Shown here: positions 3,223 to 37,630 of the stretch, piece by piece
Position numbering within the stretch: the first letter of the stretch is position 1
Layout of the letters: each line of letters opens with the position of its first letter
Source of the DNA: Deltaproteobacteria bacterium
GTDB taxonomy: Bacteria; Myxococcota; Kuafuiibacteriia; Kuafuiibacteriales; Kuafuiibacteriaceae
Assembly: GCA_040218735.1 (NCBI GenBank)
Contig: JAVJQW010000050.1
Coordinates: 256,001-320,000 of the forward strand
Direction: 5' to 3'
DNA: 64,000 nt
Translations under genes and position numbers: made by a program
Notes under the pieces: generated by a model
The model's input: the letters and a program-made list of their open reading frames with translations, nothing else
Databases searched by the model: none
Told to the model about the DNA's origin: nothing

Positions 3223-5048
3223 GTCGCCGCGTCCTCCGTGAGCTCGACGTCGATGCCCACCGCCTTCATGAGGCGCAGCGCGTTCGTCGAGACCACCGGC
3301 CCCGTTCGGAGCTGATAGTCGAACTGGATCTGGCGCTGGTTCACGTCGTCGGAGAAGTGCGCGTTCGTCGCGAGCCCCGGCGGGAGGTCCTCCGCGACCT
3401 TCGCGAGGGAGAGGTCGTGGGTGGTGACGATGCCCGTCGCACCGCTCTTCGAGAGCCAGCGAATCACCGAGGTCGCGCCGATGAAACGCTCGCGGCTGTT
3501 CGTCCCGTGGAGCATCTCGTCCAGGAGGTACAGGCAGTCCTCCTGGTGCGCGGCCGCCTCGTCGACGACGTACTTGAGACGTTTGAGCTCCGCGTAGAAG
3601 TGCGACGTCCCGGACGCCAGCGAGTCGACGATGCGCACCGACGTCGCCAGCGAGAACATCGACACACGCAGCGACTTCGCCGCGACGGGCGCACCCGCGC
3701 GCGCCAGCACGAGGTTGATGCCCACCGAACGCAGCAGCGTGCTCTTCCCGCTCATGTTCGACCCGGACAGCAGCAACACGGACCCCGCGCCCTTCAGCGT
3801 GAGGTCGTTCGCCACCACCGCGCGTCGGTCGAGGAGCGGATGCGCGATCTGCTCGGCCTCGAACGTCGACGCCGTCTCGACGAGCTCGGGCATCGTGTAG
3901 TCGGGGCGCTCGTAGAGCAGCGCGGCGAACGACGCGAGCGCCTCCGCCTCGCCGATCGCCTCGAACCACCCGCGCAGCCGCGGCCCCGCGGAAGCGCGCC
4001 ACTGGTCGGCGCGCAACACGAAGTTGAGATCCCACAGCAGCGCCGGCCCGAACGTCAGCGCGAAGAAGACGTTGAGGCGCGCGTCGAGGCGGTTGACGAT
4101 CTTCTCGAGCGCGACGATCTGCTGCGACGCCGCGACACCGTCCGCCGACAGCCGCGACTTCAACGCGGACATACGCGGGCTTTGGTACTGCCCGGACTCG
4201 ATCGCCTCGATCAGCCGCGCAAACCGCGACAGGAACCGCTCCGGCCCGGAGATGACGTGCGCGCGCTGCTCCACCGCCTTGCGCGTGAGCACCAGCGTCG
4301 CCGCCTGCGTGATGATCGCCACCGCGAGGGGCCAGCCGTTCGCGGTGAAGTAGTAGAACAAGTAGGTCGCGAACAGCGCGATGGGCTGCACGATACCGAG
4401 CACCCGGAGGACCTTGGCGTTGGCGAGCGGTGCACCCTTCTCGGCCCACTCCAGGAGCTCGGAGTCTTCGATGCGCCCCAGCTCTTCCCCCGCCGCCGCC
4501 GCGACGTAGCGCTCACGGAGATCGAGATCGGCGGCGAGCTCGGTGACGGCGGCCTGACGCGACAGCGCCTCTTCGCGATCCGCCATCTCCCCGAGGTAAC
4601 GCCCCAGCGTGCGCCGGCCCTCGGCGGTGCTCACGCGGCTGATCAGCTGGAAGAGCGACGCGGGTCCGTACAAGTCGAGGTCGCCGGCGTAGTGCGTCTC
4701 GGCGTCGTAGGGCGCAGCGAGGTCGGCCCCGTCGTCGGCGAGCTCACGCCACTTCTCCTCGAGGCGCATGAGCCCCTCTTCGTAGAAGCGCACCGCAGCG
4801 GCGGCCTGTCGGCGCCGCGCAAACGCCTTGTCCTGCAGCACGCCGAGCAGGACGAACGCACCGGCGATCGGGACGAGGCCCCACCACGGCCCGCCGTGCC
4901 GGATGAACAACGGCAACAACAGGAGCACGACGGTGACGAGCGCGAGCACGAGCCGCACGTTGCCGAGCCGGTCGGCGCGCGCCGTCGCCTCGGCGAGGGC
5001 TTCGCGACGAGCGGTGAGCCGCTCGTGGTAGGTCGTCTCGGCGGACAC
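3219..5048 (-). CDS. MutS-related ATPase (domain V) with N-terminal transmembrane helices
   Basis: Walker A GSNMSGKST, SHFYAELKRL, LLDEMLHGTNSRER, TTHD, and hydrophobic N-terminal segments. Confidence 0.9.
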   Translation of the reverse strand: MSAETTYHERLTARREALAEATARADRLGNVRLVLALVTVVLLLLPLFIRHGGPWWGLVPIAGAFVLLGVLQDKAFARRRQAAAAVRFYEEGLMRLEEKWRELADDGADLAAPYDAETHYAGDLDLYGPASLFQLISRVSTAEGRRTLGRYLGEMADREEALSRQAAVTELAADLDLRERYVAAAAGEELGRIEDSELLEWAEKGAPLANAKVLRVLGIVQPIALFATYLFYYFTANGWPLAVAIITQAATLVLTRKAVEQRAHVISGPERFLSRFARLIEAIESGQYQSPRMSALKSRLSADGVAASQQIVALEKIVNRLDARLNVFFALTFGPALLWDLNFVLRADQWRASAGPRLRGWFEAIGEAEALASFAALLYERPDYTMPELVETASTFEAEQIAHPLLDRRAVVANDLTLKGAGSVLLLSGSNMSGKSTLLRSVGINLVLARAGAPVAAKSLRVSMFSLATSVRIVDSLASGTSHFYAELKRLKYVVDEAAAHQEDCLYLLDEMLHGTNSRERFIGATSVIRWLSKSGATGIVTTHDLSLAKVAEDLPPGLATNAHFSDDVNQRQIQFDYQLRTGPVVSTNALRLMKAVGIDVELTEDAAT

Positions 5049-5062
5049 GTCGGCCCCCGCGA

Positions 5063-5782
5063 CTATTCGTTATCGGAACGGCCGCTCTCGTCGGCGGGCG
5101 GCGGGACGTCCGGCGTCTCGGGGACGATGTCCGGCGTCTCCGGCACGGTCGCCGGTTGGGTCTCGGTCTTCGGGCGCGCCCCGACGCCGATCTCCACGTC
5201 GTAGCGGACGTCGAGGCGGTCACTCGTGTCGAGCGAGATGTCGGAGCGTTCGTACGCGACGATGTTCAGGCGCGTCTCCTTGCCTTCGGGGACGTTGAGC
5301 GAGTACCGCGAGTCGACCTTGAACTTGTAGCCGTCGAGGTACGTGAACACACCGACGGACTTGCCGCGGTAGACGAGGCTGACTTCGATGATGTGCTGCC
5401 CGGGGGTGATCGGGCCGTTGTACAGCTCGAACGACTTCGCCTCGTCGAGCGAGCCGTCGGTGTTCTCCTTGGAGAAGATGACGCCACCGTCGAGCGTGTA
5501 GACCGCGCGCTCGAGCTCGAAGTTGGAGCTCATCGCGTTGTCGTGCTCGATGATGGCCCGCGTGCGCGCGATGATCCCGCCGAGCGCGCTGTCCTTCAGC
5601 GAGGCGAGCAACCCCTCGGTCTCGGCGATCCGGCGATCGAGATCGTCGATGCGCTCGTGGAACGTCGTCAGCAGCGACTGGTGACCTTCGAGCGACTCCC
5701 CCGCGACCGAGGACGTCGAGGCCTGCGCCCAAGCGTTGGTGCTGAACAGGAGAACAGCCAGAGTCAGGAGCCACCGCATCAT
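5063..5782 (-). CDS. Secreted hypothetical protein (coiled coil plus beta domain, myxobacterial family)
   Basis: Signal peptide MMRWLLTLAVLLFSTNAWA, coiled coil, GVFTYLDGYKFKV motif, PET-rich tail. 3' part of ORF 5063..7360. Confidence 0.75.
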   Translation of the reverse strand: MMRWLLTLAVLLFSTNAWAQASTSSVAGESLEGHQSLLTTFHERIDDLDRRIAETEGLLASLKDSALGGIIARTRAIIEHDNAMSSNFELERAVYTLDGGVIFSKENTDGSLDEAKSFELYNGPITPGQHIIEVSLVYRGKSVGVFTYLDGYKFKVDSRYSLNVPEGKETRLNIVAYERSDISLDTSDRLDVRYDVEIGVGARPKTETQPATVPETPDIVPETPDVPPPADESGRSDNE

Positions 5783-5929
5783 CGGAGTTGGATTAGCACC
5801 CTTTGCGCTCGAGTGCACAGGGTGAGTATCGACCCGAAAGCGCGCATCTTGAGGCCGAAAGTGCGGCTTCGAAACCGCACCGCGCCGCGCGGTTGACGGG
5901 TCCCACGGCCTGTTCGTAGGTCTCGAAAC

Positions 5930-7909
5930 ATGAGCGGCGCGCCGGACGAGCCCCACGTGCCCGCAAGCGCGAACCTCCCGGAGATCACGCTGAAGGCGGT
6001 GATCCTCGGGCTCGTCCTCTCCGCGCTGCTGTCCGCCGCCAACGCGTACCTCGGGCTGTTTGCGGGGCTCACCGTGTCGGCGTCGATCCCCGCCGCGGTG
6101 ATCTCGATGGCCGTTTTGAAGGTCCTCGGCGGAAACATCCTCGAGAACAACATCGTCCAGACCGCGGCGTCCGCCGGCGAGAGCATGGCGGCCGGCGTCA
6201 TCTTCACGATCCCCGCCCTCGTCATCCTCGGGACCTGGGCCGAGTTCGACTACTGGGAGACGACGATGATCGCGGGCTTCGGCGGCCTGCTCGGCGTGCT
6301 CTTCACCATCCCGCTGCGCCGCGCGCTCATCGTCGAGACGCCGCTCGAGTTCCCGGAGGGCGTGGCGACCGCGGAGGTGCTGAAGGTCGGCGAGTCCGGC
6401 GGCGGCGGCGGCATCAAACACATCTTCACCTCCGGCGCGATCGGCGCGCTCTTCAAGCTCGGCGAATCCGGGCTGCGCCTGTGGCACGGCACCATCGAAG
6501 AGGCGCGCTACGCCGGTTCCACGATCCTGTACTTCGGTTCGAACCTCTCCCCCGCGCTCGTCGCCGTCGGCTACATCGTGGGCCTGGAGATCGCGGTGCT
6601 GGTCTTCATCGGCGGCGCCCTGAACTGGCTCGTCGCCATCCCGATCCTCGCGGTCGTCGAAGGCGTGCCGGAGGGCGTCGGCGCCGTGGAGGCGGCGGGG
6701 GAGCTGTGGTCGACGCAGACCCGCTACCTCGGCGTCGGATCGATGGTGGTCGGCGGTCTGTGGGCGCTCGTCAGCCTGCGCAAGTCGCTCGTCGCGGGGG
6801 TGCGCTCCAGCTTCGAAGCCTACCGCCGCATGCGCGACGGCGGCGACGGCGCGACGCTCCGCACCGAGCGCGACATGCCGATGCAGTGGGTCGGCGCTGC
6901 GCTCGTCTTCTCGCTGATCCCGCTCGGGCTGATCTTCTTCCACGTGACCGGCGTGTGGTGGGTCGCCGCGATCATGTCGGTGGTGATGCTCATCGCGGGG
7001 TTTCTGTTCTCCGCGGTCGCGGGGTACATGGCGGGGCTCGTCGGCTCTTCGAACAACCCGATCTCCGGGGTGACGATCGCGACGATCCTGACCTCGTCGC
7101 TGATGCTCCTCGCGCTCCTCGGGCGCGAGAGCAAGGTCGGGCCGGCGGCGGCGATCCTGATCGGCAGCGTGGTGTGCTGCGCGGCGGCGATCGCGGGCGA
7201 CAACATGCAGGACCTCAAGGCGGGCCGCATCGTCGGGGCGACGCCGTTCAAACAACAGATCATGCAGGTGGTCGGCGTGCTGGGGGCGGCGGTCGTCGCG
7301 GCGCCGATCCTCACGCTGCTCCTCGAAGCCTACGGCATCGGCGTCCCGACCGAGGCGCACCCGGATCCGCTGCGCGCCCCGCAGGCGACGCTGATGGCGA
7401 GCGTCGCCGAGGGTGTCTTCGCGGGGGGCCTACCGTGGACGATGGTCGCGATCGGGATGGTCGTCGCCGTCGCGGTGATCGCGCTGGACCAGTGGCTCGC
7501 GCGCCGCGGCAGCACGTTCCGCACGCCGGTCCTCGCGGTGGCGGTGGGCATCTACCTGCCGTTCGAGCTGTCGGTACCGATCCTCGTGGGCGGCCTCGTC
7601 GCGCACCTCGCGAAGCGCGCGTTTGCGAAGCGGCTGGCGGCGGCGAAGGGCGATCAACGCGAGGCGATCGAAGAGGCGCAAACGGAGGGTTCGCGGAACG
7701 GGTTGTTGTTCGGGGCGGGGTTGATCACGGGGGAGGCGTTGGTGGGGATCGCGATGGCGGTGCCGATCGTGTTGACGGGGGACAAGAACGTGTTGGCGGT
7801 GTTCGGGGCGAGTGATGCGGCGTGGCCGGGCGCCGTCCTCCTCGGCCTGGTCGTCCTCCTCACCTACCGCGTCGCCGCCAAGGCCCCGAGGGAAGCAGAA
7901 CGTCCCTGA
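5930..7909 (+). CDS. OPT-family oligopeptide transporter
   Basis: NAYLGLFAGLTVSASIPAAV, FPEGVATAEV, GSSNNPISG, DNMQDLKAG, APQATLM; polytopic membrane protein. Confidence 0.95.
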   Translation: MSGAPDEPHVPASANLPEITLKAVILGLVLSALLSAANAYLGLFAGLTVSASIPAAVISMAVLKVLGGNILENNIVQTAASAGESMAAGVIFTIPALVILGTWAEFDYWETTMIAGFGGLLGVLFTIPLRRALIVETPLEFPEGVATAEVLKVGESGGGGGIKHIFTSGAIGALFKLGESGLRLWHGTIEEARYAGSTILYFGSNLSPALVAVGYIVGLEIAVLVFIGGALNWLVAIPILAVVEGVPEGVGAVEAAGELWSTQTRYLGVGSMVVGGLWALVSLRKSLVAGVRSSFEAYRRMRDGGDGATLRTERDMPMQWVGAALVFSLIPLGLIFFHVTGVWWVAAIMSVVMLIAGFLFSAVAGYMAGLVGSSNNPISGVTIATILTSSLMLLALLGRESKVGPAAAILIGSVVCCAAAIAGDNMQDLKAGRIVGATPFKQQIMQVVGVLGAAVVAAPILTLLLEAYGIGVPTEAHPDPLRAPQATLMASVAEGVFAGGLPWTMVAIGMVVAVAVIALDQWLARRGSTFRTPVLAVAVGIYLPFELSVPILVGGLVAHLAKRAFAKRLAAAKGDQREAIEEAQTEGSRNGLLFGAGLITGEALVGIAMAVPIVLTGDKNVLAVFGASDAAWPGAVLLGLVVLLTYRVAAKAPREAERP

Positions 7910-7953
7910 AATTCGAATTCACCGTTGGCGGCCTTCGCCGATCTCCGCCTCTT

Positions 7954-8745
7954 CTACTCCGACAGGTGCGCAAGCGCCGGCGCATCCGAGCGCACCGGCC
8001 ACGGCACCTCCACCGCCTCGTGCACGTTCACGCCGCGCGGCGTGCCCATGACGTCGAGCATCACCTTCAGGTCCGCGAACTCCCACGCGTAGCGCGACTG
8101 CGTGTACAGCGGGAACGCATCGGCGCTCGGCGCGTCGGGGAGCGGTCGCTTCACCATCTTCGGTTCGCCGTAAGTCTTGGTCAGCGCGTCGAGCGTCGCC
8201 TTCGCGTCGTGCCATGCGGCCTGCGACGTCTTGTGGTTGCGGCGGTACGAGGCGTGGCGCACCGGGTGCTCCGGCGAGTCGAGCACGAAGAGCACACGTC
8301 CCACGCCGTCGCGTTCGCGATCCGCGAGCTGGGCGGCCTTCGTGTCCTCGCAGGAGTAACGAACCTGTGGGTTCTTCTCCATCGGGCTCTTCTTCTTCGC
8401 CGACGCGCTGCTCGTCGCGTCGACCTCGATGCCCTGCGCCATCTTCTCCTCGCGCTCCTTCTTCTTCATCGCGCGCATCTGCTTCATCAGCGCGCGCGCC
8501 GACGTGTCCTTGCAGTCGAGGCCACGCGCCGAGGCGAGGCCCTTCACGTCGTCGAAGGTGCTCTTCCCGACTTCGACCCCGAGCAGCGCCGTGGTCGGCG
8601 CGCGCGGGCCGGGCCCGAGCTCGGCAAAGTCAGGGAGGACGACCTCATCGGCCGCACGACGCATCATGATGCCGCGCCAGCTGTAGTACGCGCCGGCGGC
8701 GACGATCGCGATGACGGGGACGAGGAAGAGGAGCTTCTTCTTCAT
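7954..8745 (-). CDS. Hypothetical membrane-anchored or exported basic protein
   Basis: RBS and ATG, N-terminal hydrophobic anchor, genome-typical codon use. Confidence 0.7.
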   Translation of the reverse strand: MKKKLLFLVPVIAIVAAGAYYSWRGIMMRRAADEVVLPDFAELGPGPRAPTTALLGVEVGKSTFDDVKGLASARGLDCKDTSARALMKQMRAMKKKEREEKMAQGIEVDATSSASAKKKSPMEKNPQVRYSCEDTKAAQLADRERDGVGRVLFVLDSPEHPVRHASYRRNHKTSQAAWHDAKATLDALTKTYGEPKMVKRPLPDAPSADAFPLYTQSRYAWEFADLKVMLDVMGTPRGVNVHEAVEVPWPVRSDAPALAHLSE

Positions 8746-8858
8746 GGCGATCTCTTTCGTTTCGTTCGGGGTTCGTTCGGATTGTCGGGACAGGTTGGCC
8801 CGGAGTCGGTGCCCGGCGAAAGGGGTGCACCGAACACCGACTCCGAGACCGAACAGGC

Positions 8859-11147
8859 CTAGTTACACGACGCGCTGTCCGCGACGATGTCGGGGCACAG
8901 CGGCGCCAGCGCGTTCACGATCGCCGTGCGATCCGCCATCGTGACCCCCGCCTGCGTCATCGCGTCCACGAGGTGGCCGACGAGCTGGTTGAAGTCCGCG
9001 ATGGTGATCGCCGCGCCCGCGCCGCCCGGCGGGTTCGTGGCGTTCATGTGCGACGACAGCATGTCGCGACACTCGACGACCTGGCCGTTGATCATCAGCT
9101 CCGGCTCCACGCCCGCGCCGTACACACACGGCCCGTCGATCGAGCAGACCTGACGCACGAGGCAGGTGCTGAGTCGGTCCGCGTCCGCGAGGCCGAAGAA
9201 GCCGACGAGCGTCGGGTCCATGACGATGCGCTGGACGAGGTCCGCGACCACCAGGTCGATCGCCGGCTTGCGGCCGACGCGCTGGTAGACCGTCGCGTTG
9301 CTGTCCGGGTCCTCGACGACCGTCGCCACGAAGGGTGCGTCGGTGAGGGCCGCGACGATCGCGTCGATGTCCGCCTGCAGGACGCCCGCGTCGGTGAGCG
9401 CACCGACGAGGTGCCCGGCGAGGTCGTTGTAGTCGTTCTGCGAGATGCCGAGGCCCATGTGCACGGACGTCATGTCGGCGCACGGCTCGATCGTCCCGTC
9501 CATGCCGCGGTCGAGCTCGGTCTCCACGCCCTCGCCGTAGATGCAGGGGCCGCCGGTGAGGCCGCAGACCTGACGCACGAGGCACGTGGTCAGCCGCGCC
9601 GCGTCGACGCTGTTGTTGAGGAAGTAGCCGTTGATGCGCGGGTCCGCGACGACGCGACCGACGAAGTCGTTCACCACCGTGGCGACCGCGGGCTTGCGGC
9701 CGGCGCGCTGGTAGATCGTCGCGTTGCTGTTCGCGTCCTCGACGATCGTCGAGACAAACGTCGGCTCGGTGAGCGCGGAGACGATCGCGTCGATGTCCGT
9801 CTGCGCGACACCGGCGTCGGTGAGCGCGCCGACGAGGTCCGCCGCGAGGTCGTTGTAGTCGTTCATCGAGATGCCGAGGTTCTCGTGCACCGCCAACATC
9901 GACGCACACGGGTCCGCCGTGCCGTCGCCGTCGCGGTCGAGCTCGGGCTCCACGCCCTCGCCGTACACACACGGGCCGCCCGTCAGGCCGCAGACCTGGC
10001 GAACGAGGCAGGTCGTGAGGCGCGCGCCGTCGACCGAGCTGTTGAGGAAGTAACCGTTGATCGCGGCGTTCGAAACGACACGGCCGACGAAGTCACCGAT
10101 CACCAACTGCACGGCGGGCTTGCGGCCGGCGCGCTGGTAGATCGTGTTGTCGCTGTTCGGGTCCTCGACGATCGTGTTCACGAAGGCGGGGTCGGTCAGC
10201 GCGGCGACGATCGTGTCGATGTCCGCCTGCGCGACGCCCGCGTCGGTGAGCTGCGTGACGAGGTGACCCGCGAGGTCCATGTAGTCGTTCGACGAGATGC
10301 CGAGGCCCTGGTGAACCGACGTCATGTCGACGCACGGCTCGGCGGTGCCGTCGCCATCGCGATCGAGCTCCGGCTCGACGCCCGCGCCGTACGCGCAGGG
10401 CCCACCGGTCAGACCGCAGACCTGGCGTACGAGGCACGTCGACAGGCGCGCCGCGTCGACGCGGCTGTTCAGGAAGTAGCCGTTGATGCGCGCGTCCGCG
10501 ACGACGTCGCCGATGAACCCGGCGATGACCGTCTGGATGGCCGGCTTGCGACCGACGCGCTGGTAGATCGTCGCGTTGTCGTCCGCGTCCTCGATGATGA
10601 TGTCACCGAGGGGGGAGATCGCCGTGACGACCGCGTCCACGTCGGAGGCTGCGACACCCGCGTCGTTGAGCGCGTCGACCAGGTGCGTCGCGAGGTCCGT
10701 GAAGTCCTGCGTCGAGATGCCGAGCCCCGCGTGGGAGTCCGTCATGTTCCGGCAGCCGTCCGCGTCCGGGCCCTCGCCTTCGGCGGGGTAGGTCTGCGGC
10801 CCGCCGCTGACGGCGCCGACCTGCTTCACGAGGCAGAGCGCGAGGCGGGTGCCGTTCACGCCGTCGTTGAGGAAGTAGCCGTTGATCGCGGGATCGGCGA
10901 CGACGCGCCCCACGAAGTCCTGGATGACGGTCGTGATGCCCGCCTCGCCGCCGAGGCGGTCGTAGAGCGTGCCGACGACCTCGCCGCCGTCGCGTTCGGT
11001 CCCGCCGTCGCGCTGCGCGGCCGGTCCTCCGTCACGGGGCTCGCCGTCGTCCCCGTCGTCGTCGTCGCCGGAGCAGCCCACGGCGAGCGCGAGCGCGCTG
11101 GCCGTCAGGGCGTTGAATAGAAGTGATCTGGAGCGTTTGCGAAACAT
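8859..11147 (-). CDS. Lipoprotein with five tandem group I truncated (2/2) globin domains
   Basis: GGAGG RBS before ATG 11147; lipobox LAVGC; five copies of T(L/I/V)YxRxG...F(CD1)...G(G)P..Y...MxxxH(F8). Confidence 0.9.
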   Translation of the reverse strand: MFRKRSRSLLFNALTASALALAVGCSGDDDDGDDGEPRDGGPAAQRDGGTERDGGEVVGTLYDRLGGEAGITTVIQDFVGRVVADPAINGYFLNDGVNGTRLALCLVKQVGAVSGGPQTYPAEGEGPDADGCRNMTDSHAGLGISTQDFTDLATHLVDALNDAGVAASDVDAVVTAISPLGDIIIEDADDNATIYQRVGRKPAIQTVIAGFIGDVVADARINGYFLNSRVDAARLSTCLVRQVCGLTGGPCAYGAGVEPELDRDGDGTAEPCVDMTSVHQGLGISSNDYMDLAGHLVTQLTDAGVAQADIDTIVAALTDPAFVNTIVEDPNSDNTIYQRAGRKPAVQLVIGDFVGRVVSNAAINGYFLNSSVDGARLTTCLVRQVCGLTGGPCVYGEGVEPELDRDGDGTADPCASMLAVHENLGISMNDYNDLAADLVGALTDAGVAQTDIDAIVSALTEPTFVSTIVEDANSNATIYQRAGRKPAVATVVNDFVGRVVADPRINGYFLNNSVDAARLTTCLVRQVCGLTGGPCIYGEGVETELDRGMDGTIEPCADMTSVHMGLGISQNDYNDLAGHLVGALTDAGVLQADIDAIVAALTDAPFVATVVEDPDSNATVYQRVGRKPAIDLVVADLVQRIVMDPTLVGFFGLADADRLSTCLVRQVCSIDGPCVYGAGVEPELMINGQVVECRDMLSSHMNATNPPGGAGAAITIADFNQLVGHLVDAMTQAGVTMADRTAIVNALAPLCPDIVADSASCN
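9285..10563 (-). repeat. 426-bp intragenic tandem repeat (globin domain period, 142 aa)
   Basis: The GTAG core of the motif cgctggtaga falls at 9285, 9711, 10137 and 10563, exactly 426 bp apart. Confidence 0.9.
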
Positions 11148-11305
11148 CGTACCTCCTGAGCGTTCGCGTGGGATCGGAGCGGATACGCCGGCCGCTTCGG
11201 ATCGGATCACTTTCGAAAGGACGTTTCGGGTGTGTGCGTACCATTGCCCACCGCGCGTCTTTGGCGCTATGCCCTCCCCGCCGTGTTAGATTCGGGACCG
11301 ACACC

Positions 11306-12655
11306 ATGACCGAAGCCGATCCGGCGTCTGGGCTAGGGCTGAAGCTGGCCCTGACCGCCATCTTCGTCGCCCTCAATGGTTTCTTCGTCGCCGCCGAGTT
11401 TGCGCTCGTCAAAGTGCGGCCGACGCGCATCGAGGCGCTCGCCCGGACGGGCGACAGCAAGGCGATCGTCGTCCAGTCGATCCTGAAGAACCTGAACGCC
11501 TACCTCTCCGGGTGCCAGCTGGGCATCACCATCGCGAGCCTCGTGCTCGGTTGGCTGGCCGAACCCGCGATCGCCAAGCTGCTGGTCGTCGGCCTGCAGG
11601 CGGCGGGCGTCCAGGTCGGGGACACCGGCGTCCTCCACATCGTCGCCCTCGCCATCGCCCTGACCATCGTGACGATCCTCCACATGACGATCGGCGAGCA
11701 GGCGCCGAAGATCTGGGCGATTCAGGAGCCGGAGAAGCTCGCGCTGTGGTGCGCGTACCCGCTCAAGCTGTTCTTCTCGCTGTTCCGCCCGTTCATCTGG
11801 CTGGTCGACCGCATCTCCAGCCTCCTCCTGAGGATGGTCGGGCTGCAGGTCGCCGACGAACACGGCGGCGTCGAGGACGTCGAGGAATTGCGCGCCATAC
11901 TGAGGGCGGCGTCCGAGGCCGGACACATCTCCGGCCGACAGCGCACCCTCGGCGAGAACATCCTCGGGCTGATGCGCCTGGAGGTCCGGCACATCATGCT
12001 GCCGCGCGTCGACGTGGTGTACCTGTCGACGTCGAAGACCGACGACGAAAACCTCGAGATCATCAAGTCGGCCGGGCACTCGCGGTACCCGTTCTGTAAC
12101 CCCGACCTCGACACGGTGACCGGCCTCGTCCACACGCGCGATGTCGTGCGGAGGCTCATCCAGGAGGACACCGTCGACCTCGAGCAGCTCGTGCGCCCCT
12201 TCCCGTCGGTGCCCGACACCCAGCCGATCGCCCGCCTGATCCTCGACATGCAGCGCGGGCAGGCGCACTCCGCGCTCGTCGTCGACGAACACGGAACGAG
12301 CGTCGGCATGGTGTTCCTGGAGGACGCGCTCGAAGAGATCGTCGGCCCAATCCACGACGAATTCGACAACCGCGCGCCGTGGATCGAAGCCAAGGGTGAC
12401 AGCTTCGAGATGGCCGGCAGCGTGCCCCTCCCGGACGCCGCCGAGACCCTCGGGCTCGACCTCGGGACCGAGGAGGACACGATCGGCGGCTTCATCGTCT
12501 CGCGCCTCAAGCGGCTCCCGGTCGAAGGCGACGAGGTCGAGGTGCTCCCGTTCCGCGCGAAGGTCATTTCCATGTCGCGGCGCCGCGTGACGCGCGTGCG
12601 CTTCGAGCGCCTCCCGGAGGAGTCGCCAGGCGCCGAGCCGGTGGCTTCGGCCTGA
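11306..12655 (+). CDS. HlyC/CorC (CNNM-CBS-CorC) family protein
   Basis: LNGFFVAAEFALV, QLGITIASL, GEQAPK, GHSRYP, VVDEHG, LEEIVGPIHDEFD. Confidence 0.95.
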   Translation: MTEADPASGLGLKLALTAIFVALNGFFVAAEFALVKVRPTRIEALARTGDSKAIVVQSILKNLNAYLSGCQLGITIASLVLGWLAEPAIAKLLVVGLQAAGVQVGDTGVLHIVALAIALTIVTILHMTIGEQAPKIWAIQEPEKLALWCAYPLKLFFSLFRPFIWLVDRISSLLLRMVGLQVADEHGGVEDVEELRAILRAASEAGHISGRQRTLGENILGLMRLEVRHIMLPRVDVVYLSTSKTDDENLEIIKSAGHSRYPFCNPDLDTVTGLVHTRDVVRRLIQEDTVDLEQLVRPFPSVPDTQPIARLILDMQRGQAHSALVVDEHGTSVGMVFLEDALEEIVGPIHDEFDNRAPWIEAKGDSFEMAGSVPLPDAAETLGLDLGTEEDTIGGFIVSRLKRLPVEGDEVEVLPFRAKVISMSRRRVTRVRFERLPEESPGAEPVASA

Positions 12656-12667
12656 GGGACCCGCCCC

Positions 12668-13810
12668 TTGCGGACGGCGAAGCGCACCGCCGCGGTGCTG
12701 GTCGCCGCGTTCGCGGTGTTCCTCTTCGGCTTCGCGGCCTCCCTCGCGGACCGTCTGCTGAACCCCACCTTCGACGCACCGATCGCGACGTCCACGACGG
12801 CCGCTGCGCTTCACGCCTCGTTGCGCGTCGTCGACCTCCACGCCGACTCGCTGGTGTGGGAGCGCTCGCTCGCCGAGCGCGGGACGACCGGGCACGTCGA
12901 CGTCCCGCGTTTGATCGAAGGGCACGTCGCGCTGCAGGTGTTGGCGCTGCCGACGAAGTCGCCGCTCGGTCAGAACTTCGAGCGCACCGAAGACGGGTGG
13001 ATCGATCAGATCACCGTGCTCGGCGTGGCGCAGCTGTGGCCGCTCGACGCGTGGACGAGCCTCGAAGCGCGCGCGCACCTGCACGCCGCGGAGCTCGCGG
13101 CGCTCGACGCCGAGCGGGACGACCTGTTCGTGGTGCGCAACGTTCAAGATCTCGATCGTGTCGGCGAAGGCGGCGTCGCGGCGCTCCTCGCCATCGAAGG
13201 CGCGCACTGCCTGGAAGGTGACGTCGAGGCCGTCGACCGTCTGTTCGCCGCCGGCTTCCGGATGTTCGGGCTGACGCACTTCTTCGACAACGAGCTCGGC
13301 GGCTCGGCGCACGGCGTCGACAAGGGCGGCCTCACGGACTTTGGCCGCGCGGTGGTCGAGCGCATGGAGGCGCTGTCCATCGTCGTCGACCTCGCCCACG
13401 CGTCCCCTGCGGTGATCGACGACGTCCTCGACGTCGTGAAGCGCCCGGTCGTCGTCAGCCACACCGGCGTCCGCGGCGTCTGCGACAACGACAGGAACCT
13501 CACCGACGCCCAGCTCTTCCGCATCCGCGACAACGGCGGCGTCATCGGTATCGGCTTCTGGCCGGCCGCGGTGTGCGGCGACGATGCGGCCGCGATCGCG
13601 AAGTCCATCGCCTACGTCGCCGATCGCATCGGCGCCGACCACGTCGCGCTGGGCTCCGACTACGACGGCGCCGTCGGCGTACCCTTCGACGCCTCGGGCA
13701 TGGAGGCGCTCACCCACGCGCTCCTGGAGCGCGGCATGGACGACGAGACCATCGCGAAGATCATGGGTGAGAACACCCTCCGCGTCCTGCGCGCGTCGCT
13801 GCCTAATTGA
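12668..13810 (+). CDS. Membrane dipeptidase (M19 family)
   Basis: VDLHAD, IEGAH, VDLAHAS, VSHTG, RNLTD, LGSDYDG, KIMGEN. Confidence 0.92.
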   Translation: MRTAKRTAAVLVAAFAVFLFGFAASLADRLLNPTFDAPIATSTTAAALHASLRVVDLHADSLVWERSLAERGTTGHVDVPRLIEGHVALQVLALPTKSPLGQNFERTEDGWIDQITVLGVAQLWPLDAWTSLEARAHLHAAELAALDAERDDLFVVRNVQDLDRVGEGGVAALLAIEGAHCLEGDVEAVDRLFAAGFRMFGLTHFFDNELGGSAHGVDKGGLTDFGRAVVERMEALSIVVDLAHASPAVIDDVLDVVKRPVVVSHTGVRGVCDNDRNLTDAQLFRIRDNGGVIGIGFWPAAVCGDDAAAIAKSIAYVADRIGADHVALGSDYDGAVGVPFDASGMEALTHALLERGMDDETIAKIMGENTLRVLRASLPN

Positions 13811-14984
13811 AGTTCAGGCTGTACGGGATCGACACCGACGACAGCTCCTTCGAGCGCACGCGCGGATACCTGAAGCTCCCGACCACGTCCTCGAGGCAGG
13901 TCTTCAGCTCTTCGGCGTAACGCGACGGGCGCACCGCGACCTCGTCCGGGCGGCCCTTGGCGCCGACGACCCACGAGATGGTGAGGTCGGTGCCCGCGAA
14001 GCGGTCCATGTCCTGACGCGCGACGTTCAACACACAGGACTCCAGCCACGGGAGCGCCTCGTGGTGCGTGCGGTCGAGCTCGTCGGAGGACAGCGGTCCG
14101 CGGCGCTGCGAGTGCCGCGAGTAGTCGGTGAGGAACACTCGCTTCGCCACCGCGAGCTGACGACGTGCACAGGTGCCCGCCTCGTTCTCGGCCTCCAGCT
14201 TTCGACACGCGCGCTGAAGCTCGCGCGTGCGCACGTAGAGCCGGCGCGCCTCGTCGTGGGAAGACGCTTCGAGTCCATTGAAACGAATCGCCGCGTCGAG
14301 CGCAGCTTCGTGATCGTCCTTGTCGGCGTACGCGTAGTAGAGCGCCTGCTGCGCCACGGCGCGCGCGCGCCACGACTTCGCCGAGGTGGCTTCCTTCGCC
14401 GCCTCGATCGCGGCGTCCGGCTCCCCCGACCGCGCGAGCACGAGCGCCTTCACCGCGCGCGCGAGCTCGACCCGCGCCCCGTCGCGATCGGCGCGGTACA
14501 CCCGCTCCGCCACGGCCAAGTCCTTGAGGGCCGCCTTGCGCTTCGCCTCCGACCGGCGCGGGTAGCGCTCGAACAAACGGAGCCGCTGGTCGTGTTTCAG
14601 GAGCTCGGTGACGCGGTTCGCTTCGTTCTTCCGCTTCGCCGCGAACAGCGCGCGACGACGCCTCGACAGCGCCCGCGCGCGACCCCGTCGATCGTCCAGC
14701 GCGGCGTGCGCCGCGTCGCGGTAACGACGCGCCGCCTCGACGTCCTTGTCCTGCACCTCGGCGATCCGCGCCCGCAGCATTTCGGCCGCGTGCCGCTCGG
14801 GGCCCCCGACCTTCGGCTCCTCGCTGGCCCCGAGGGCCTTCTTCGCCGCCGCCGCCGCCTCGTCGTACGCGCGGGCGCGAAGGTGTTTCTTCGCATCCGC
14901 CATCGCGGCGGCGTAGTCCGGGGCCTCACCGGGCGCCTGGACGAGGGCGAGCAGAGCCGGCACCAAGAGCCGCACGGGCCGCAT
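13803..14984 (-). CDS. Exported helical-repeat protein with C-terminal AgmX/PglI (TonB-C-like) domain
   Basis: Signal peptide, Ala-rich TPR-like helices, C-terminal LESC...LTISWVVGAKG...LKTCL...FRYP. Confidence 0.7.
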   Translation of the reverse strand: MRPVRLLVPALLALVQAPGEAPDYAAAMADAKKHLRARAYDEAAAAAKKALGASEEPKVGGPERHAAEMLRARIAEVQDKDVEAARRYRDAAHAALDDRRGRARALSRRRRALFAAKRKNEANRVTELLKHDQRLRLFERYPRRSEAKRKAALKDLAVAERVYRADRDGARVELARAVKALVLARSGEPDAAIEAAKEATSAKSWRARAVAQQALYYAYADKDDHEAALDAAIRFNGLEASSHDEARRLYVRTRELQRACRKLEAENEAGTCARRQLAVAKRVFLTDYSRHSQRRGPLSSDELDRTHHEALPWLESCVLNVARQDMDRFAGTDLTISWVVGAKGRPDEVAVRPSRYAEELKTCLEDVVGSFRYPRVRSKELSSVSIPYSLNFN

Positions 14985-15088
14985 GGTCGCCCCGACCGGC
15001 CACCGCATCAACCCGACCCCGAGGATTGCCCCCCACGGCCCGCTAACGCCCATGACACGGGGCCATCGGTAGGCTACAACGCGCGGCG

Positions 15089-17167: not shown

Positions 17168-17539
17168 ATGAAGTTTCGCCTGCTGCTCACTGCCTCCGCC
17201 TTCGCTCTCGCGCTCGCCGCCACGTCGACCCCCGCGTCGGCCGCCAAGAAGTTCGAGAACCTGAAGGTCCTCAAGGACAACGGGAAAGACCTCGAGAAGG
17301 GCATGAAGAACATGTCCAAGGGCCTCGGCGTGAAGTGCACCGCGTGCCACGTCAAAGGTGACTTCGCCTCCGACGAAGTGAAGGCCAAGGACGCCACCCG
17401 GAAGTTCTTCACCGCCACCGTCGGCAAGAAGGACGGCCGCGACGCCGCGCTCAAGGAGCTGCTCGGCGTCCTGAAGGTCGACAAGCTCAAGAAGGCCGAC
17501 AAGTTCTGGGCCGGCGTCGACAAACTCGCCAAGAAATAG
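17168..17539 (+). CDS. Small periplasmic monoheme c-type cytochrome (PufC-like motif)
   Basis: Signal peptide, NLKVL, MxxMSKGLGVKCTACH (CxxCH); Lys-rich. Confidence 0.88.
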   Translation: MKFRLLLTASAFALALAATSTPASAAKKFENLKVLKDNGKDLEKGMKNMSKGLGVKCTACHVKGDFASDEVKAKDATRKFFTATVGKKDGRDAALKELLGVLKVDKLKKADKFWAGVDKLAKK

Positions 17540-17541
17540 GG

Positions 17542-17811
17542 CTACCCACTGTCCGCCGCGGTCTCGATACACGCGGCGCACACCCCCTGGTCGCCGTGCA
17601 GCACCAGGGCCTCGACCTCGCTCCCCGATCGACCACACGTGATGCAGACGCGTCGGCTCCACAGCCGTCGCGTCACGTCGTTCGCTTGTCGTGCGCGCGG
17701 CAGCGTCGCTTCGAGCAACGCGACGCACGCCCCGCAAGCCAGCTTGCGACCGATCCGCTTCGGCGCTTCGGGGGGCTCGCCGCAGACCGCGCACTGTTCC
17801 TTCGTCATCAT
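17542..17811 (-). CDS. Small double C4 zinc-finger protein (ClpX-finger-like)
   Basis: Four CxxC pairs (CAVC, CGAC, CITC, CAAC); start overlaps the upstream stop (TGATG). Confidence 0.7.
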   Translation of the reverse strand: MMTKEQCAVCGEPPEAPKRIGRKLACGACVALLEATLPRARQANDVTRRLWSRRVCITCGRSGSEVEALVLHGDQGVCAACIETAADSG

Positions 17812-20800
17812 CAGCCTCCGAACGGTTCGTAGAAGCTCGGGAAGTCTCGGACGAATGCGTCCATCCCGTCAGCCCCCGCAAAGATCGCCTCCCAGAACGG
17901 CTCCGTGTTCGTGCGCAACGGCGGGAAGGTGACGCCGAAGCGCTCGCGGAGGACCGCGTCGTTCAGCGACGACACCACCGCGGGCGTCCCGCGGACGTTC
18001 GGGGTGTAGTGGTAGAGGAGGAACGACGCTTCCGCGATCCGTTCGAGGCCCTCGTCGAGCGTGAGGGTCGGGTCGTTGAGGACCTCCGCGTACAGGTCGA
18101 AGGCGTGCTCCTGCACGTGGGCCGGGTCCGTGACCGCGACGTTCACGTCGAAATCCGGGTCGCCCTCCACCCACGCGAACGGCGGGTGGTGAATCTCGAT
18201 GTTTCCGTCCGCGTCCCGCGTGACGACCGACAGCGGGACCTCGCGGCCGTCGACGGTGATCGTGTTTTCCGCCTGGCCGCGGAACGGACGGCTCCACAGC
18301 GGGGAGTCCTCCGGGAGCGCATTCGCGCGATCGAAGTAATAGCGGTGCCGGTTGCCGGGGTTGATGAAGTCGACCGGCGGGAGCCCGGCGCCGGCGTCGG
18401 TGATGAACAGCTCGGCGTCCGGCGTGTTCGAAGCCTCCGCGAGATCGAAGCGCGTCTGCGTGATGTCGTCAAAGGCCGCGCGCACGTCACCGCCGTCCAC
18501 CGGACCGACGTGCTCGCCGAACGTCCGGACGCTGCGCTGAATCGCCGCGCTCATGCCGTCGAGGAACGCCTGCTGGCTCGGGCCGACCTGCACTTCGTTG
18601 TAACCCGGGATGTTCGGAGGGAGGTGCTGTGCCGTGGGGTCGCCGTCCGCCAGCGGGAAGCGGTGGCTCGGCGCGTCGGCCGCGGTGACGTGGGTGTCGA
18701 AGTCGAACGGACGTGTCGCGCGCCCCACCCCGAGCGTGCCGGCGCCCCAGAACCCGATCTGCCCGAGCAACGCGAGCCGCTGTCCGCCCGACAGTTCGTC
18801 GAAGTTCGCGCCCAACGTGTACGCCGCGTCGCTCGCGGCCGCGGTGTCGGCGAGCGTCGCGGTGATGCCGAGGTAACGCTGCGCCGCGGCGACGGGGACG
18901 TGCAGGTGACTCGTCCCGGGGAGGCTCGCGGCGAGCGGCGTCTGGAGCGCGCGGTTCACACCCACCGCGCCGATCGCCAACGTCGACGCGGCGCCCGCGC
19001 CCACGTTCAGCCACGCCGAACGAACGCTCGGGTCCGAGAGGTCGGTCCAGTTCTGTCCGTGCTCCGCACGATCGATGAGCACCTGAGCGCCCTGCCCGGC
19101 CTGCCACGCACCGGACGCCGCGACGACGCCGAGCGCGACGCCGCCGGCCACACCACCGGTACCGGCGACGAGCAGAAAACCGCCGGCGACCGTTCCGCCG
19201 ACCAACGCCGCGGTGTTCACGACTTGCTGCGCACGCTCGGCCGGCGTGTCGGCGGTACGCGGGGTGTTCGCGCGGACGAGGCGACCGTCGAGCGCGCCGC
19301 CCTCGGGCCACACCATGCTCCCGGGTTCGAGCGCGTTGGTGTGTCGCCAGTCGTCGAAGTCGTCGTAGGTGCGGCCCTGGTGATCGACGAAGCGGACCTG
19401 GCTCGGGTCGTCGGCGTCCTCCACGCGGAACAACGGGTACGTGACGGTGCCGATGCTCTCGTGGCTGTACTGAATCGGGAGCACGGTGATCGCCGCGGTG
19501 TCGATGCCGTTCTCCGGATCGTCTTCCACCGCGCGGATCGCGTCGGCGACGTCCGTGACACGATCTTCGGAGGCCTGCGACGCTTCACGCTGCGCTTCGT
19601 ACGCCTCGATCGCGCTCGCGCTCATGGTCGCCCGCTGCTCGGGGGACAGCGGTGGGAGCGCTTCGTAGAGGAGCCCCTCCCCCGCCGCGATCGCGGCCTC
19701 GCGCTCCGCGAGCTCTTCCTCGGTCGCCAGCGGGCTCACCGACACCGCCTCGTTCATCGCGCTCCCGATCGTGTTGTCGAGGTCGGTCCCCTCGAGCACC
19801 ACCGGGCCGTCGGTCCGCGCCGCGTAGTCGTCGAGCACCGGGCGCGCGGCGTCGAAGAGGAGACGCGGGTTGTCGTAGACACTCGCGGTCGCGGTGAAGA
19901 GCTCCGCGTCCCATTCGTCGTGGTCGTGCAGGCGGCGGAGGTTGTCGAGGCGTTCGACCGGCGACACGTTTTGGTTGAAGAGGAAGTCGCGGCCCTGCTC
20001 GGTGGCGAGGACCTCCTCCAAGCGCGGCGCGACCTCGGCGGCGGCGGCGGAGTCCTCGGGGTACCAGTGGCTCGCGAGCGCCGCGGCGAAGTCATCCTCC
20101 GACCCCCGCACAGCGTCCGGCGTCATGGTGAGGAACGCGGTGTTGAGCACGGCGGCGGAGACGTCGCTCGGCGCGCCCATCGCGACCGCCTCGACGATAC
20201 GCCGCTGCATCACGGCGCGGTCGTCCGGATTGGTGGCGTCTTCGTACGCGAGCGACGTCGTGATCGAGACGGCGTCATCGACACCGATCGCCTCCAACGC
20301 GCCGCGCAGCTCCTCGGCGTCCGAGGTCATCGCGACGAACCCGGCCGACAGGTTGGCCGCGTCGCGGTGGCGCCCCTCTTCGGTCGCGAGGACGGAGGTG
20401 CGCGCGAACGCGTCGAGCAGCTCCGCGGACAGCTCGGGTTCGTCCGCGAGCGACGCCGCGAGCGCGTCGAGATCGGCCTGACGGTCCGGGCGATCGGAGG
20501 TCGCCCAGTCCGCCGCCGCTTGGTCGAAGAGGTAGGCGCGCTCGTCGTCGTCGAGCTCGCCGAGCGGCGAGTCGCCGCGCGCGATGTCGACCGCGTCGAA
20601 CAGATCCGTCGCGCCCGCACCGCCGCTCGGCTGCGGGTTGGGCGTGTCACTCGGCCGGTCCGCGTCGCCCGCCTCGAGCAGCGCGTCGATCTCGGCGGCG
20701 CGCTCCGGGAGCGCAAACGGATACCCCGCCGCCTGGACGAGCTCGGGGTCGAAGGTCCAGGCCTGCTCCGGGTCCGGCTCCGGCGCGCGCGTGCGCTCCT

Positions 20801-21101
20801 CGTCGACCGCACCCTGGAGCATCCACGCCGTGTACGTCCCCGCGAACGCCAGCTCGGCGCGCGGCGCGACGGACGCACCCGGGCTCGCCCGCCGCGGCGC
20901 CCCGCTCGCGGGCGCGCTGCCCGACGTCCCGGACGACGACGACGCACCGGACGAGGAAGACGCCCCGGACGACGACGACGCCCCGGACGACGATGATGTC
21001 GTGGACGGCGCCGCCGGCTTCGCGGGAGCCGAGCCGCCCTTCAGCGCCCGTAGCTGCGAGGGGGACAGATCCGACGTACGCCGAATGGATTTCGTACCCA
21101 T
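17811..21101 (-). CDS. Large DUF4781-like protein with candidate C-terminal Fido/AvrB-like domain (putative polymorphic effector)
   Basis: PLFRV...FVDHQGRTYDDFDDWRHTNAL, Gly/Ala-rich hydrophobic helices, C-terminal LYHYTPNVRGTPAV; no signal peptide. Confidence 0.75.
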   Translation of the reverse strand: MGTKSIRRTSDLSPSQLRALKGGSAPAKPAAPSTTSSSSGASSSSGASSSSGASSSSGTSGSAPASGAPRRASPGASVAPRAELAFAGTYTAWMLQGAVDEERTRAPEPDPEQAWTFDPELVQAAGYPFALPERAAEIDALLEAGDADRPSDTPNPQPSGGAGATDLFDAVDIARGDSPLGELDDDERAYLFDQAAADWATSDRPDRQADLDALAASLADEPELSAELLDAFARTSVLATEEGRHRDAANLSAGFVAMTSDAEELRGALEAIGVDDAVSITTSLAYEDATNPDDRAVMQRRIVEAVAMGAPSDVSAAVLNTAFLTMTPDAVRGSEDDFAAALASHWYPEDSAAAAEVAPRLEEVLATEQGRDFLFNQNVSPVERLDNLRRLHDHDEWDAELFTATASVYDNPRLLFDAARPVLDDYAARTDGPVVLEGTDLDNTIGSAMNEAVSVSPLATEEELAEREAAIAAGEGLLYEALPPLSPEQRATMSASAIEAYEAQREASQASEDRVTDVADAIRAVEDDPENGIDTAAITVLPIQYSHESIGTVTYPLFRVEDADDPSQVRFVDHQGRTYDDFDDWRHTNALEPGSMVWPEGGALDGRLVRANTPRTADTPAERAQQVVNTAALVGGTVAGGFLLVAGTGGVAGGVALGVVAASGAWQAGQGAQVLIDRAEHGQNWTDLSDPSVRSAWLNVGAGAASTLAIGAVGVNRALQTPLAASLPGTSHLHVPVAAAQRYLGITATLADTAAASDAAYTLGANFDELSGGQRLALLGQIGFWGAGTLGVGRATRPFDFDTHVTAADAPSHRFPLADGDPTAQHLPPNIPGYNEVQVGPSQQAFLDGMSAAIQRSVRTFGEHVGPVDGGDVRAAFDDITQTRFDLAEASNTPDAELFITDAGAGLPPVDFINPGNRHRYYFDRANALPEDSPLWSRPFRGQAENTITVDGREVPLSVVTRDADGNIEIHHPPFAWVEGDPDFDVNVAVTDPAHVQEHAFDLYAEVLNDPTLTLDEGLERIAEASFLLYHYTPNVRGTPAVVSSLNDAVLRERFGVTFPPLRTNTEPFWEAIFAGADGMDAFVRDFPSFYEPFGG
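20923..21000 (-). repeat. 18-bp tandem repeat encoding SSSSGA
   Basis: About four copies of ccggacgacgacgacgc-like units in the N-terminal low-complexity region. Confidence 0.8.
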
Positions 21102-37420: not shown

Positions 37421-37451
37421 GAATCCTCCTGGATGGTGTGCCCGATGCCTT

Positions 37452-37467
37452 TACAAGGTCCGGGCCA
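37452..37467 (-). promoter_or_regulatory. Candidate sigma54 (-24/-12) promoter for the annexin gene
   Basis: Minus strand TGGCCC-GGACC-TTGTA versus consensus TGGCAC-N5-TTGC; the -12 GC is GT. Confidence 0.5.
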
Positions 37468-37506
37468 AGCCGCAGGAGGACGCGCGGCGACGCTCGAGAT
37501 CCCCGG

Positions 37507-37540
37507 TCGGGAGCCCTCTAGGGATCGCGGGGGCTCCCGA
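37507..37540. promoter_or_regulatory. Inverted repeat, candidate enhancer/activator binding site
   Basis: TCGGGAGCCC-N14-GGGCTCCCGA with perfect 10-bp arms, between the annexin and the activator gene. Confidence 0.55.
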
Positions 37541-37630
37541 ATTGGGAACCCCTGCGCGACAGCGTGGTCGGCGTGGGCGGCACCCCTCCACCGCCGGTCC
37601 ACAGCGCGCGGCGAGGTGCCATCGCCTGCT

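Follow-up and report, generated by a model that had tools for sequence, protein, structure and literature searches.

A gene in a 64,000-nucleotide stretch of DNA from a Myxococcota bacterium (Deltaproteobacteria bacterium, assembly GCA_040218735.1, contig JAVJQW010000050.1, positions 256,001 to 320,000; hereafter the window) encodes a predicted exported lipoprotein, P0001, carrying five truncated haemoglobin (trHb) domains in tandem. P0001 is a well-supported divergent trHb form and part of an unstudied two-gene module, the second gene of which, a conserved partner lying directly downstream, was missed by an initial annotation of this DNA. Homologue searches make P0001 a member of a large, mainly Myxococcota family of putatively exported lipoprotein arrays of 1-8 trHb domains. 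The best overall explanation, for which belief and doubt are about evenly balanced, is an exported, disulfide-stapled lipoprotein haem array that would bind small apolar ligands. The initial annotation had already read the gene as an exported lipoprotein of five tandem group-I trHbs, and this reading is borne out by a lipobox with Cys25, five matches to the Bac_globin family above its cut-off and a structural model resembling Mycobacterium tuberculosis HbN.

The tandem globin lipoprotein and its haem pocket

Each of the five domains (D1-D5) was scanned separately against Pfam PF01152 (Bac_globin, cut-off 21 bits), as the initial annotation had suggested, and all five scored above the cut-off (45.1, 26.0, 22.0, 34.4 and 25.6 bits for D1 to D5), D5 with an aligned part that covers profile positions 76-115 only. 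In HMMER the top sequence match was that of D1 to M. tuberculosis HbN (E = 1.4e-12), free of gaps from the CD region to the EF Gly-Gly-Pro, and the helix-position numbering used here is read from that alignment. The D1 positions are Phe78/Val79 (B9/B10), Phe92 (CD1), Leu102 (E7), Cys105 (E10), Leu106 (E11), Gln109 (E14), Cys132 (pre-F), Met135 (F4), His139 (F8) and Leu152 (G8). The features of the gene are as follows (window coordinates).

11073-11147, minus strand: signal peptide with lipobox, amino acids 1-25, ending in ...LALAVGC; lipidation predicted at Cys25; twin-arginine motif absent
10977-11072, minus strand: acidic Gly-rich tether, amino acids 26-57, with 12 Asp/Glu and 9 Gly per 32 residues; disordered in the model
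10569-10976, minus strand: trHb domain 1, amino acids 58-193, 'first' type with the GG motif; Cys105 (E10), Cys132 (pre-F), His139 (F8); Bac_globin 45.1 bits
10143-10568, minus strand: trHb domain 2, amino acids 194-335, 'middle' type; Cys238/272, Cys244/251, His279, ELDRDGDGT insert; 26.0 bits
9717-10142, minus strand: trHb domain 3, amino acids 336-477, 'middle' type; Cys380/414, Cys386/393, His421, ELDRDGDGT insert; 22.0 bits
9291-9716, minus strand: trHb domain 4, amino acids 478-619, 'middle' type; Cys522/556, Cys528/535, His563, variant insert ELDRGMDGT; 34.4 bits
8862-9290, minus strand: trHb domain 5, amino acids 620-762, 'last' type; Cys662/693, Cys668/674, extra C-terminal pair Cys751/761, His700; 25.6 bits

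The open reading frame (ORF) spans 8859..11210 on the minus strand and, read from the ATG at 11147, gives a product of 762 amino acids (coding 8862-11147). This start is backed by an identical 762-residue NCBI record of the same length and start, a 'hypothetical protein' from a metagenome-assembled genome (MAG). The ORF is a real gene rather than a chance one, because it has homologues (179 at E ≤ 1e-3 among 8000 candidates scored in a word-indexed search, 120 of the 179 being listed) and because its GC content at third codon positions, 0.93, is typical of the genes of the window (about 69% GC overall). By pattern matching only, the N-terminus (MFRKRSRS-LLFNALTASALALAV-GC) has a charged n-region, a hydrophobic h-region and a lipobox leading to Cys25. 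Repeats start at residues 61, 194, 336, 478 and 620, so the 142-residue period given in the initial annotation holds for D2-D5 and not for the step from D1 to D2, which is 133 residues; the acidic linker and the proximal His of all five domains were described there correctly. D5 also carries an insert after F8, NATNPPGGAGAA. No NCBIfam family matched P0001, the whole-protein Pfam scores for YniB and TMP_3 fell below the cut-offs of those families, and none of the 762 residues lies in a C..CH or C(2-4)CH motif, hence there is no c-type haem motif (CXXCH).

Group-I trHbs are marked by Gly-Gly at the AB and EF corners, by a polar distal site with Tyr B10 and Gln at E7/E11, and by Phe E14. The proximal His (MxxxH), Met F4, Phe B9 and Phe CD1 are kept in five of five domains of P0001. 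Its distal site is apolar, with Val or Ile at B10 and Leu at E7, E11 and G8, together with a Cys at E10 and an invariant Gln at E14, so that the canonical polar network and Phe E14 are both missing. The EF corner reads GGP in D1-D4 and DGP in D5, and the AB Gly-Gly occurs only in D1 and the other first-type domains, D2-D5 having G-R-K-P in its place. Judged from these residues, the domains form a divergent group-I trHb subgroup with a distal site that is not of the canonical HbN type.

Pocket residues and cysteines were then counted over 287 near-full domains from the 120 listed family proteins. Phe CD1 is present in all 287, His F8 in 284, Met F4 in 281, Gln E14 and Cys E10 in 274 each and the pre-F Cys in 272. 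At the distal positions, B10 is Val, Leu or Ile in 264 domains; E7 is Leu in 242, Val in 29 and Phe in 11 (282 for the three); E11 is Leu in 249 and Leu, Val or Phe in 281; and G8 is Leu in 212 and Phe in 57. The apolar pocket and E10 Cys that the initial annotation had found by hand alignment thus agree with both the HMMER alignment and the family counts, and a wholly apolar distal site is a family trait. A proximal His and pocket conserved over so many domains would be hard to explain without haem, and it is quite likely that, once P0001 has been exported, His F8 of every domain ligates a b-type haem, one per domain.

An AlphaFold2 model of P0001, computed from aligned multi-domain homologues (25 rows), reached a mean predicted local distance difference test (pLDDT) score of 85.4 and a predicted template modelling score (pTM) of 0.68, with pLDDT below 50 for residues 1-56 only. 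Searched with Foldseek against the PDB, it gave 22 matches at E ≤ 1e-3, and all those listed are truncated haemoglobins with target template modelling (TM) scores of 0.84-0.92: HbN at 0.85-0.87 (32-33% identity), the Paramecium protein at 0.90, that of Tetrahymena at 0.91-0.92 and Shewanella benthica HbN at 0.87-0.92. No multi-domain globin chain in the PDB matched at this threshold. The model therefore assigns the domains a predicted 2-on-2 globin fold.

HbN (PDB 1IDR/2GL3) is alike in this fold and in Phe CD1, Leu E7, Met F4, His F8 and the EF Gly-Gly-Pro, but it has one domain, resides in the cytoplasm and relies on Tyr B10 and Gln E11 in its O2/NO chemistry, whereas P0001 has Val/Ile B10, Leu E11, Gln E14 and Cys E10 in five domains, with a lipobox and putative disulfide cysteines. 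S. benthica HbN (TrHbN-2, PDB 8UGZ; target TM 0.87) is a group-I trHb with a likewise apolar B10 (Phe). It differs in being cytoplasmic and single-domain, in associating with itself non-covalently, and in having Tyr CD1 and Met E10 where P0001 has Phe and Cys; its two Cys, at E16 and F10, are described as too far apart for a disulfide (PMC11904497).

Cysteine pairs, domain types and loop inserts

The domains of P0001 contain 2, 4, 4, 4 and 6 Cys from D1 to D5, the counts reported in the initial annotation. Across the 287 family domains, the Cys at E10 and before helix F occur both together in 272, are both missing from 13 and stand singly in only 2. A second pair, at E16 ('QVC') and in the EF loop ('GGPC'), is complete in 98 domains, absent from 188 and represented by one Cys in 1, and the total number of Cys is even in 280 of the 287. 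A Cys motif of the last domain was found in 65 of the 120 proteins, with a second Cys 6-14 residues further on in 65 of 65. The covarying Cys are very probably joined in disulfides, staples suited to an oxidising envelope: every domain would have the E10/pre-F bond, D2-D5 a further one between E16 and the EF loop, and D5 a third near its C-terminus; the first two pairings had been proposed in the initial annotation and are strengthened by these counts. Animal extracellular and multi-domain globins such as the annelid giant haemoglobins and that of Artemia are likewise exported, made of several domains and disulfide-stabilised. These animal proteins are eukaryotic O2 transporters of 3-on-3 fold with polar distal sites and no lipid anchor or bacterial partner gene.

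The initial annotation had offered Cys/His haem ligation as the alternative. E10 is His in Synechocystis GlbN and Lys in Chlamydomonas THB1, and both ligate the iron to give six-coordinate haem. THB1 (4XDI/6CII) is among both the sequence and the fold matches of P0001. In P0001, however, the residue at this position is a Cys that covaries with the pre-F Cys as a disulfide would, and covariation this near to perfect favours disulfides over E10 Cys as a primary iron ligand, which leaves the alternative weaker than before.

Three domain types can be told apart. First domains have the AB Gly-Gly and the E10/pre-F pair only, middle domains have G-R-K-P and two pairs, and last domains add the C-terminal pair. 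On a domain tree built from 205 of the 287 domains (all from P0001-P0070, then every fifth protein), the labels first, middle and last need 8 changes, against a mean of 94.8 for shuffled labels (0 of 200 shuffles as low), and one set with 99% support holds 69 first and 3 middle domains. Within P0001, D2-D4 are 74-77% identical to one another and 40-54% identical to D1 and D5. Tandem Repeats Finder detects a 426-bp unit in 3.2 copies (78% match) spanning 9257-10598, and this DNA repeat covers D2-D4. By these comparisons D1 and D5 represent distinct, anciently diverged 'first' and 'last' types and D2-D4 recent internal duplications. The domain types on the tree, the likeness of D2-D4 and the DNA repeat together make it look as though the ancestral module was a two-domain unit, first plus last, which was later lengthened by internal duplication.

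The ELDRDGDGT inserts likened to calcium loops in the initial annotation are present in D2 and D3, each containing DRDGDG, with the variant in D4. The calcium-loop reading is weakened: only 4 of the 287 family domains contain DxDxDG, all from P0001 and its 74%-identical relative P0003 (9 of 287 with a relaxed pattern), and the Pfam family Excalibur scores 23.0 against a cut-off of 22 over the whole of P0001 with no individually passing stretch, single domains giving 14.6 and 13.5 bits. From the sequence pattern the inserts are best described as lineage-specific decoration of the variable EF/pre-F loop, and calcium binding by D2 and D3 is possible.

Family, export and the partner gene

The five-domain hidden Markov model (HMM) found 2, 3, 4 or 5 domains in each of the 120 listed proteins, apart from one fragmentary record with 6 matches. 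An exhaustive profile search of 1.84 billion representatives returned 2539 matches at E ≤ 1e-3 (ordinary trHbs included), 593 at ≤ 1e-10 and 90 at ≤ 1e-30. The top matches are nearly all multi-domain, up to a maximum of 8 full domains in the 1336-residue lipoprotein P0173, and a few single-domain lipobox forms also appear, so that domain number, which the initial annotation had expected a homologue search to address, varies from 1 to 8 per protein. With at least 90 cluster representatives (E ≤ 1e-30, up to 8 domains), these searches suggest a whole trHb lineage that left the cytoplasm, acquired a lipid anchor and disulfide staples and expanded into tandem arrays, and that often has beside it a conserved membrane protein without a match in any known family. 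Relatives are named in databases as 'hypothetical', 'hemoglobin', 'truncated hemoglobin YjbI' or after a fused domain.

A lipobox-like pattern is present in 107 of the 120 family proteins and a twin-arginine-like pattern in 2, and none of the 107 has Lys at position +2. In Myxococcus xanthus, +2 Lys is reported for 8 of 12 inner-membrane lipoproteins, and FibA is held in the outer membrane by Asp at +7 (PMC3222651). Because +2 Lys is absent from the family and the residues at +2 and +7 from the lipid Cys of P0001 are Ser and Asp, P0001 is inferred to be suspended at the outer membrane, either inside the periplasm or on the surface, an extrapolation from the distant relative M. xanthus. Precomputed Pfam labels show fusions within the family to DUF4394, a proprotein-convertase P-domain, DUF4399, fasciclin, collagen and Dictyostelium-type repeats, and such extracellular-type domains point to an extracytoplasmic life.

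Other lineages of tandem trHbs exist, so a tandem arrangement by itself does not set this family apart. P0207, P0194, P0248, P0277 and P0285 represent other exported tandem-trHb lineages without the E10/pre-F Cys pair, one of them a three-domain lipobox protein, and their sequences make it seem that exported globin arrays arose or diversified beyond the Cys-stapled family. P0209 (1882 amino acids), P0221, P0259 and P0298 are long multi-domain trHb proteins with canonical Tyr B10 / Gln E11 and no lipobox.

Bacterial globins are treated as cytoplasmic and mostly single-domain. A literature search that left subscription-journal globin surveys and supplements outside its scope found no description of a bacterial exported, lipidated or tandem trHb, and its results for 'extracellular globin' were animal systems only. 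The trHb survey of Bustamante et al. 2016 (PMC4720485) makes no mention of multidomain, tandem, signal peptide, Myxococc or deltaproteobacteria. Found in no paper within that scope, the architecture is nevertheless not a one-off, given the family of 1-8 domains and the other tandem lineages, and the suggestion that it had not been described is weakened to that extent.

A genome scan with two peptide patterns, which sets a lower bound, found 48 loci, almost all in Myxococcota plus one Sericytochromatia MAG, with 2-3 paralogues in several genomes. They include loci in Nannocystis exedens DSM 71, N. punicea, N. radixulma, N. bainbridge, Enhygromyxa, Kofleriaceae and Polyangiaceae. The partner gene adjoins the globin gene on the same strand.

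8746-8858, minus strand: spacer of 113 nt between globin and partner genes, without a terminator-like site
7954-8745, minus strand: partner gene, encoding a 263-residue single-pass membrane protein whose transmembrane helix is N-terminal and whose alpha/beta domain has no recognisable relative

A scan of 7700-11500 for promoters and terminators detected none. A homologue of the partner lies directly downstream and co-directional in 25 of the 48 loci (L001-L013, L015-L024, L043 and L045; tblastn and HMM searches of six-frame ORFs), and globin and partner form a two-gene module in about half of the loci seen. The gap between them is about 0.7-0.8 kb in four loci, where the globin ORF runs on past the globin domains. 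In a near-identical genome the NCBI locus tags of the two genes are adjacent. Neighbourhood clustering across the 48 loci gave no second conserved neighbour besides the partner.

The partner family comprises 51 homologues, named only 'hypothetical' where they are named. Their alignment has invariant Cys78, Pro126, Cys132, Asp156 and Arg163, a near-invariant His164 and many Arg and Asp, and the two invariant Cys would fit a periplasmic location. The partner model is of high quality (pLDDT 93.3, pTM 0.83). Pfam has no family for the protein, a PDB profile search found no sequence relative (best E = 0.057), Foldseek against the PDB returned nothing at E ≤ 1e-3 (best 4ygt, E = 9.2e-3, TM 0.22/0.35), and its Atlas neighbours above a score of 0.9 are 'hypothetical' clusters only. 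A bilin- or haem-lyase-like identity was dismissed, the S-type bilin lyase match being at noise level (E = 0.19), as were insignificant fold matches to DUF4309 YjgB, the TiME soluble domain and chorismate lyase. No fused form of the partner scored among 4587 candidates (longer proteins), which is weak evidence. Complex prediction with residues 58-762 of P0001 and 35-263 of the partner (score 0.00, mark 0.32) speaks neither for nor against binding.

Nannocystaceae bacterium ST9 is cultured and carries the globin-plus-partner pair (locus L007, where the globin homologue has two domains), and Pseudenhygromyxa sp. WMMC2535 has a partner homologue. The cultured N. exedens DSM 71, N. punicea, N. radixulma and N. 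bainbridge have related globin loci without the partner. These cultured carriers make exported trHb arrays experimentally tractable.

Candidate functions and the wider locus

The single most likely function, advanced tentatively and with somewhat more doubt than belief, is a high-capacity array of five-coordinate haems that would buffer or scavenge small ligands in the envelope. P0001 would be exported by Sec and processed by signal peptidase II, after which haem b would be loaded onto each domain at His F8, and the disulfide-stapled domains would be suspended from the outer membrane on the acidic disordered tether of about 30 residues. The five-coordinate haems would reversibly bind NO and CO as the likeliest ligands and O2 only weakly, and in the ferric state they might also take up sulfide or anionic ligands such as cyanide; lacking a distal hydrogen-bond donor, they are expected to stabilise O2 poorly and to prefer NO/CO. 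Such buffering or scavenging would resemble that of periplasmic cytochrome c' rather than the action of oxygen-avid or NO-dioxygenase globins, and the partner could act in maturation (haem loading), docking or signalling. Cytochromes c' are periplasmic and five-coordinate, with a His-ligated haem in an apolar distal pocket, and are lipidated in Neisseria. As an envelope haem protein helping against NO, CycP of Neisseria is proposed as a functional analogue only. It differs in being a four-helix bundle with a covalent c-haem (CXXCH) and one haem per subunit, and has no homology to P0001. Its contribution to NO resistance has been reported for N. meningitidis (PMC9072670).

Several points weigh against this explanation. 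Haem binding is deduced from conserved residues alone, and the pocket is non-canonical, with Gln at E14 and the AB Gly-Gly replaced by G-R-K in D2-D5; E14 in trHbs is usually a Phe touching the haem. A Sec-exported globin must take up haem b outside the cytoplasm, and no such pathway is visible at the locus. Buffering by stoichiometric binding would be limited in capacity, and there is no evident reductase that would maintain ferrous haem. Of the 48 loci, 23 lack the partner, namely 21 of Nannocystis type (L025-L042, L046-L048) plus L014 and L044; the proteins of the Nannocystis-type loci match the P-domain fusions of the family. Neither in the window nor across the 48 loci does the conserved neighbourhood include a gene related to NO, O2 or sulfide. 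If haem binding is true, how haem b is loaded onto Sec-exported globins becomes a question, as do the partner's job and the role of an apolar five-coordinate array in the envelope of social predatory bacteria, be it in handling NO, CO, cyanide, sulfide or O2 or in haem capture.

Haem capture, storage or relay ranks second and is a rather unlikely alternative, in which the tethered array would take haem from lysed prey or from its own envelope and pass it on, perhaps via the partner. Myxobacteria are predators, and a run of 1-8 haem-type domains on a lipid anchor and a long flexible tether would suit this role, as would fusions to extracellular-matrix-type domains, disulfide stapling fit for extracellular life and a His-only apolar site without ligand-stabilising residues. 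NEAT-domain proteins (IsdH/IsdB) and HtaA receptors, with HmuY likewise cited, offer an analogy in their tandem, envelope-anchored haem modules of variable copy number, but they are beta-sandwiches with Tyr ligation encoded beside haem importers, whereas P0001 consists of Bac_globin domains only and has no importer conserved nearby. The loci speak against capture as well, with no TonB-dependent receptor, haem ABC importer or haem oxygenase conserved adjacent to the globin gene; beyond the closest locus only the partner is conserved, and the OPT transporter adjoining the gene in the window matches none of the 48 loci. Globin folds moreover grip haem very tightly, which is poor for relay, and the conserved distal residues with Gln E14 suggest selection on ligand chemistry beyond haem binding. 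A haem-free structural or adhesive envelope protein re-using the globin fold is improbable. Families of non-haem globin fold exist (PMC8717448), and the matrix-type fusions and non-canonical motifs (Gln E14, loss of the AB Gly-Gly in D2-D5) would accord with one, but in the absence of haem nothing would account for the retention of His F8, Met F4 and Phe CD1 in 284, 281 and 287 of the 287 domains.

Just as improbable is a thiol-disulfide-switched His/Cys haem sensor or sulfur-chemistry catalyst, in which a reduced E10 thiolate would bind the iron and the redox state or a gas would be reported via the partner. E10 is a known distal-ligand position in group-I trHbs, where Met E10 has been called 'a potential distal ligand' (PMC11904497), and the E10 Cys of 274 of the 287 domains and the conserved membrane partner are in keeping with such a switch. 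Ligation, however, needs no second Cys covarying with the first, as a structural disulfide predicts, the oxidising periplasm favours the disulfide, and the partner is a single helix with no cytoplasmic output domain. His/Cys haem ligation is otherwise seen in periplasmic sulfur-oxidising c-cytochromes and haem sensors. A broader proposal is more doubtful still: five-coordinate gas-binding haems while the E10/pre-F disulfide is closed and, on reduction, an E10 thiolate on the iron in a His/Cys b-haem globin, the outer-membrane-tethered array and its inner-membrane partner then forming a new periplasmic redox/gas-sensing or sulfur-handling system widespread in Myxococcota. Least credible of all is the multi-haem electron conduit, or 'wire', across the envelope that the initial annotation had raised. 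Five putative haems per exported chain and a pTM that hints at a defined inter-domain arrangement could suit one, but P0001 lacks CXXCH or any c-type motif, a predicted His-only high-spin site without a second axial ligand is poor for electron transfer, and haems buried in separate domains of about 140 residues are expected on geometric grounds to lie well beyond 14-20 Å apart. No redox partner is conserved nearby in the 48 loci, and nothing in the conserved neighbourhood suggests electron transfer.

Among the other genes of the window, the OPT transporter, a CNNM/CorC protein and an M19 dipeptidase have no match in any of the 48 loci, and L001, the closest locus, is the only one to share a MutS-like gene, a 416-residue hypothetical protein and a small cytochrome-c-like ORF. 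The 416-residue protein (13803-15053, minus strand) has no Pfam family and is 38% identical to its counterpart in L001. The cytochrome-c-like ORF (17168-17539, plus strand; 4595-4966 in L001) encodes 123 residues, 59% identical in L001, with a weak reaction-centre cytochrome c match (E = 1.6e-4, below cut-off). Ser/Thr kinase neighbour 'clusters' were rejected as conserved linkage, reflecting abundant paralogues and close Nannocystis synteny. In L028, L034, L036, L042 and L048 (about 4470-7510, plus strand), a Ser/Thr-kinase/TPR protein of 982-1093 residues lies directly upstream of a P-domain-fused two-domain globin lipoprotein on the same strand, an adjacency in five Nannocystis loci that may be plain synteny of close species.

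Elsewhere in the window, the 544-residue product of 35789-37420 (minus strand) contains four repeats of the annexin type (Pfam Annexin, E = 9.8e-102); annexins are uncommon in bacteria. This ORF overlaps the 5' part of a sigma-54 activator ORF at 36812-39367 (plus strand), whose true start probably lies further downstream. The sole Pfam match of a 1096-residue protein at 17811-21101 (minus strand) is to DUF4781 (E = 3.2e-20).

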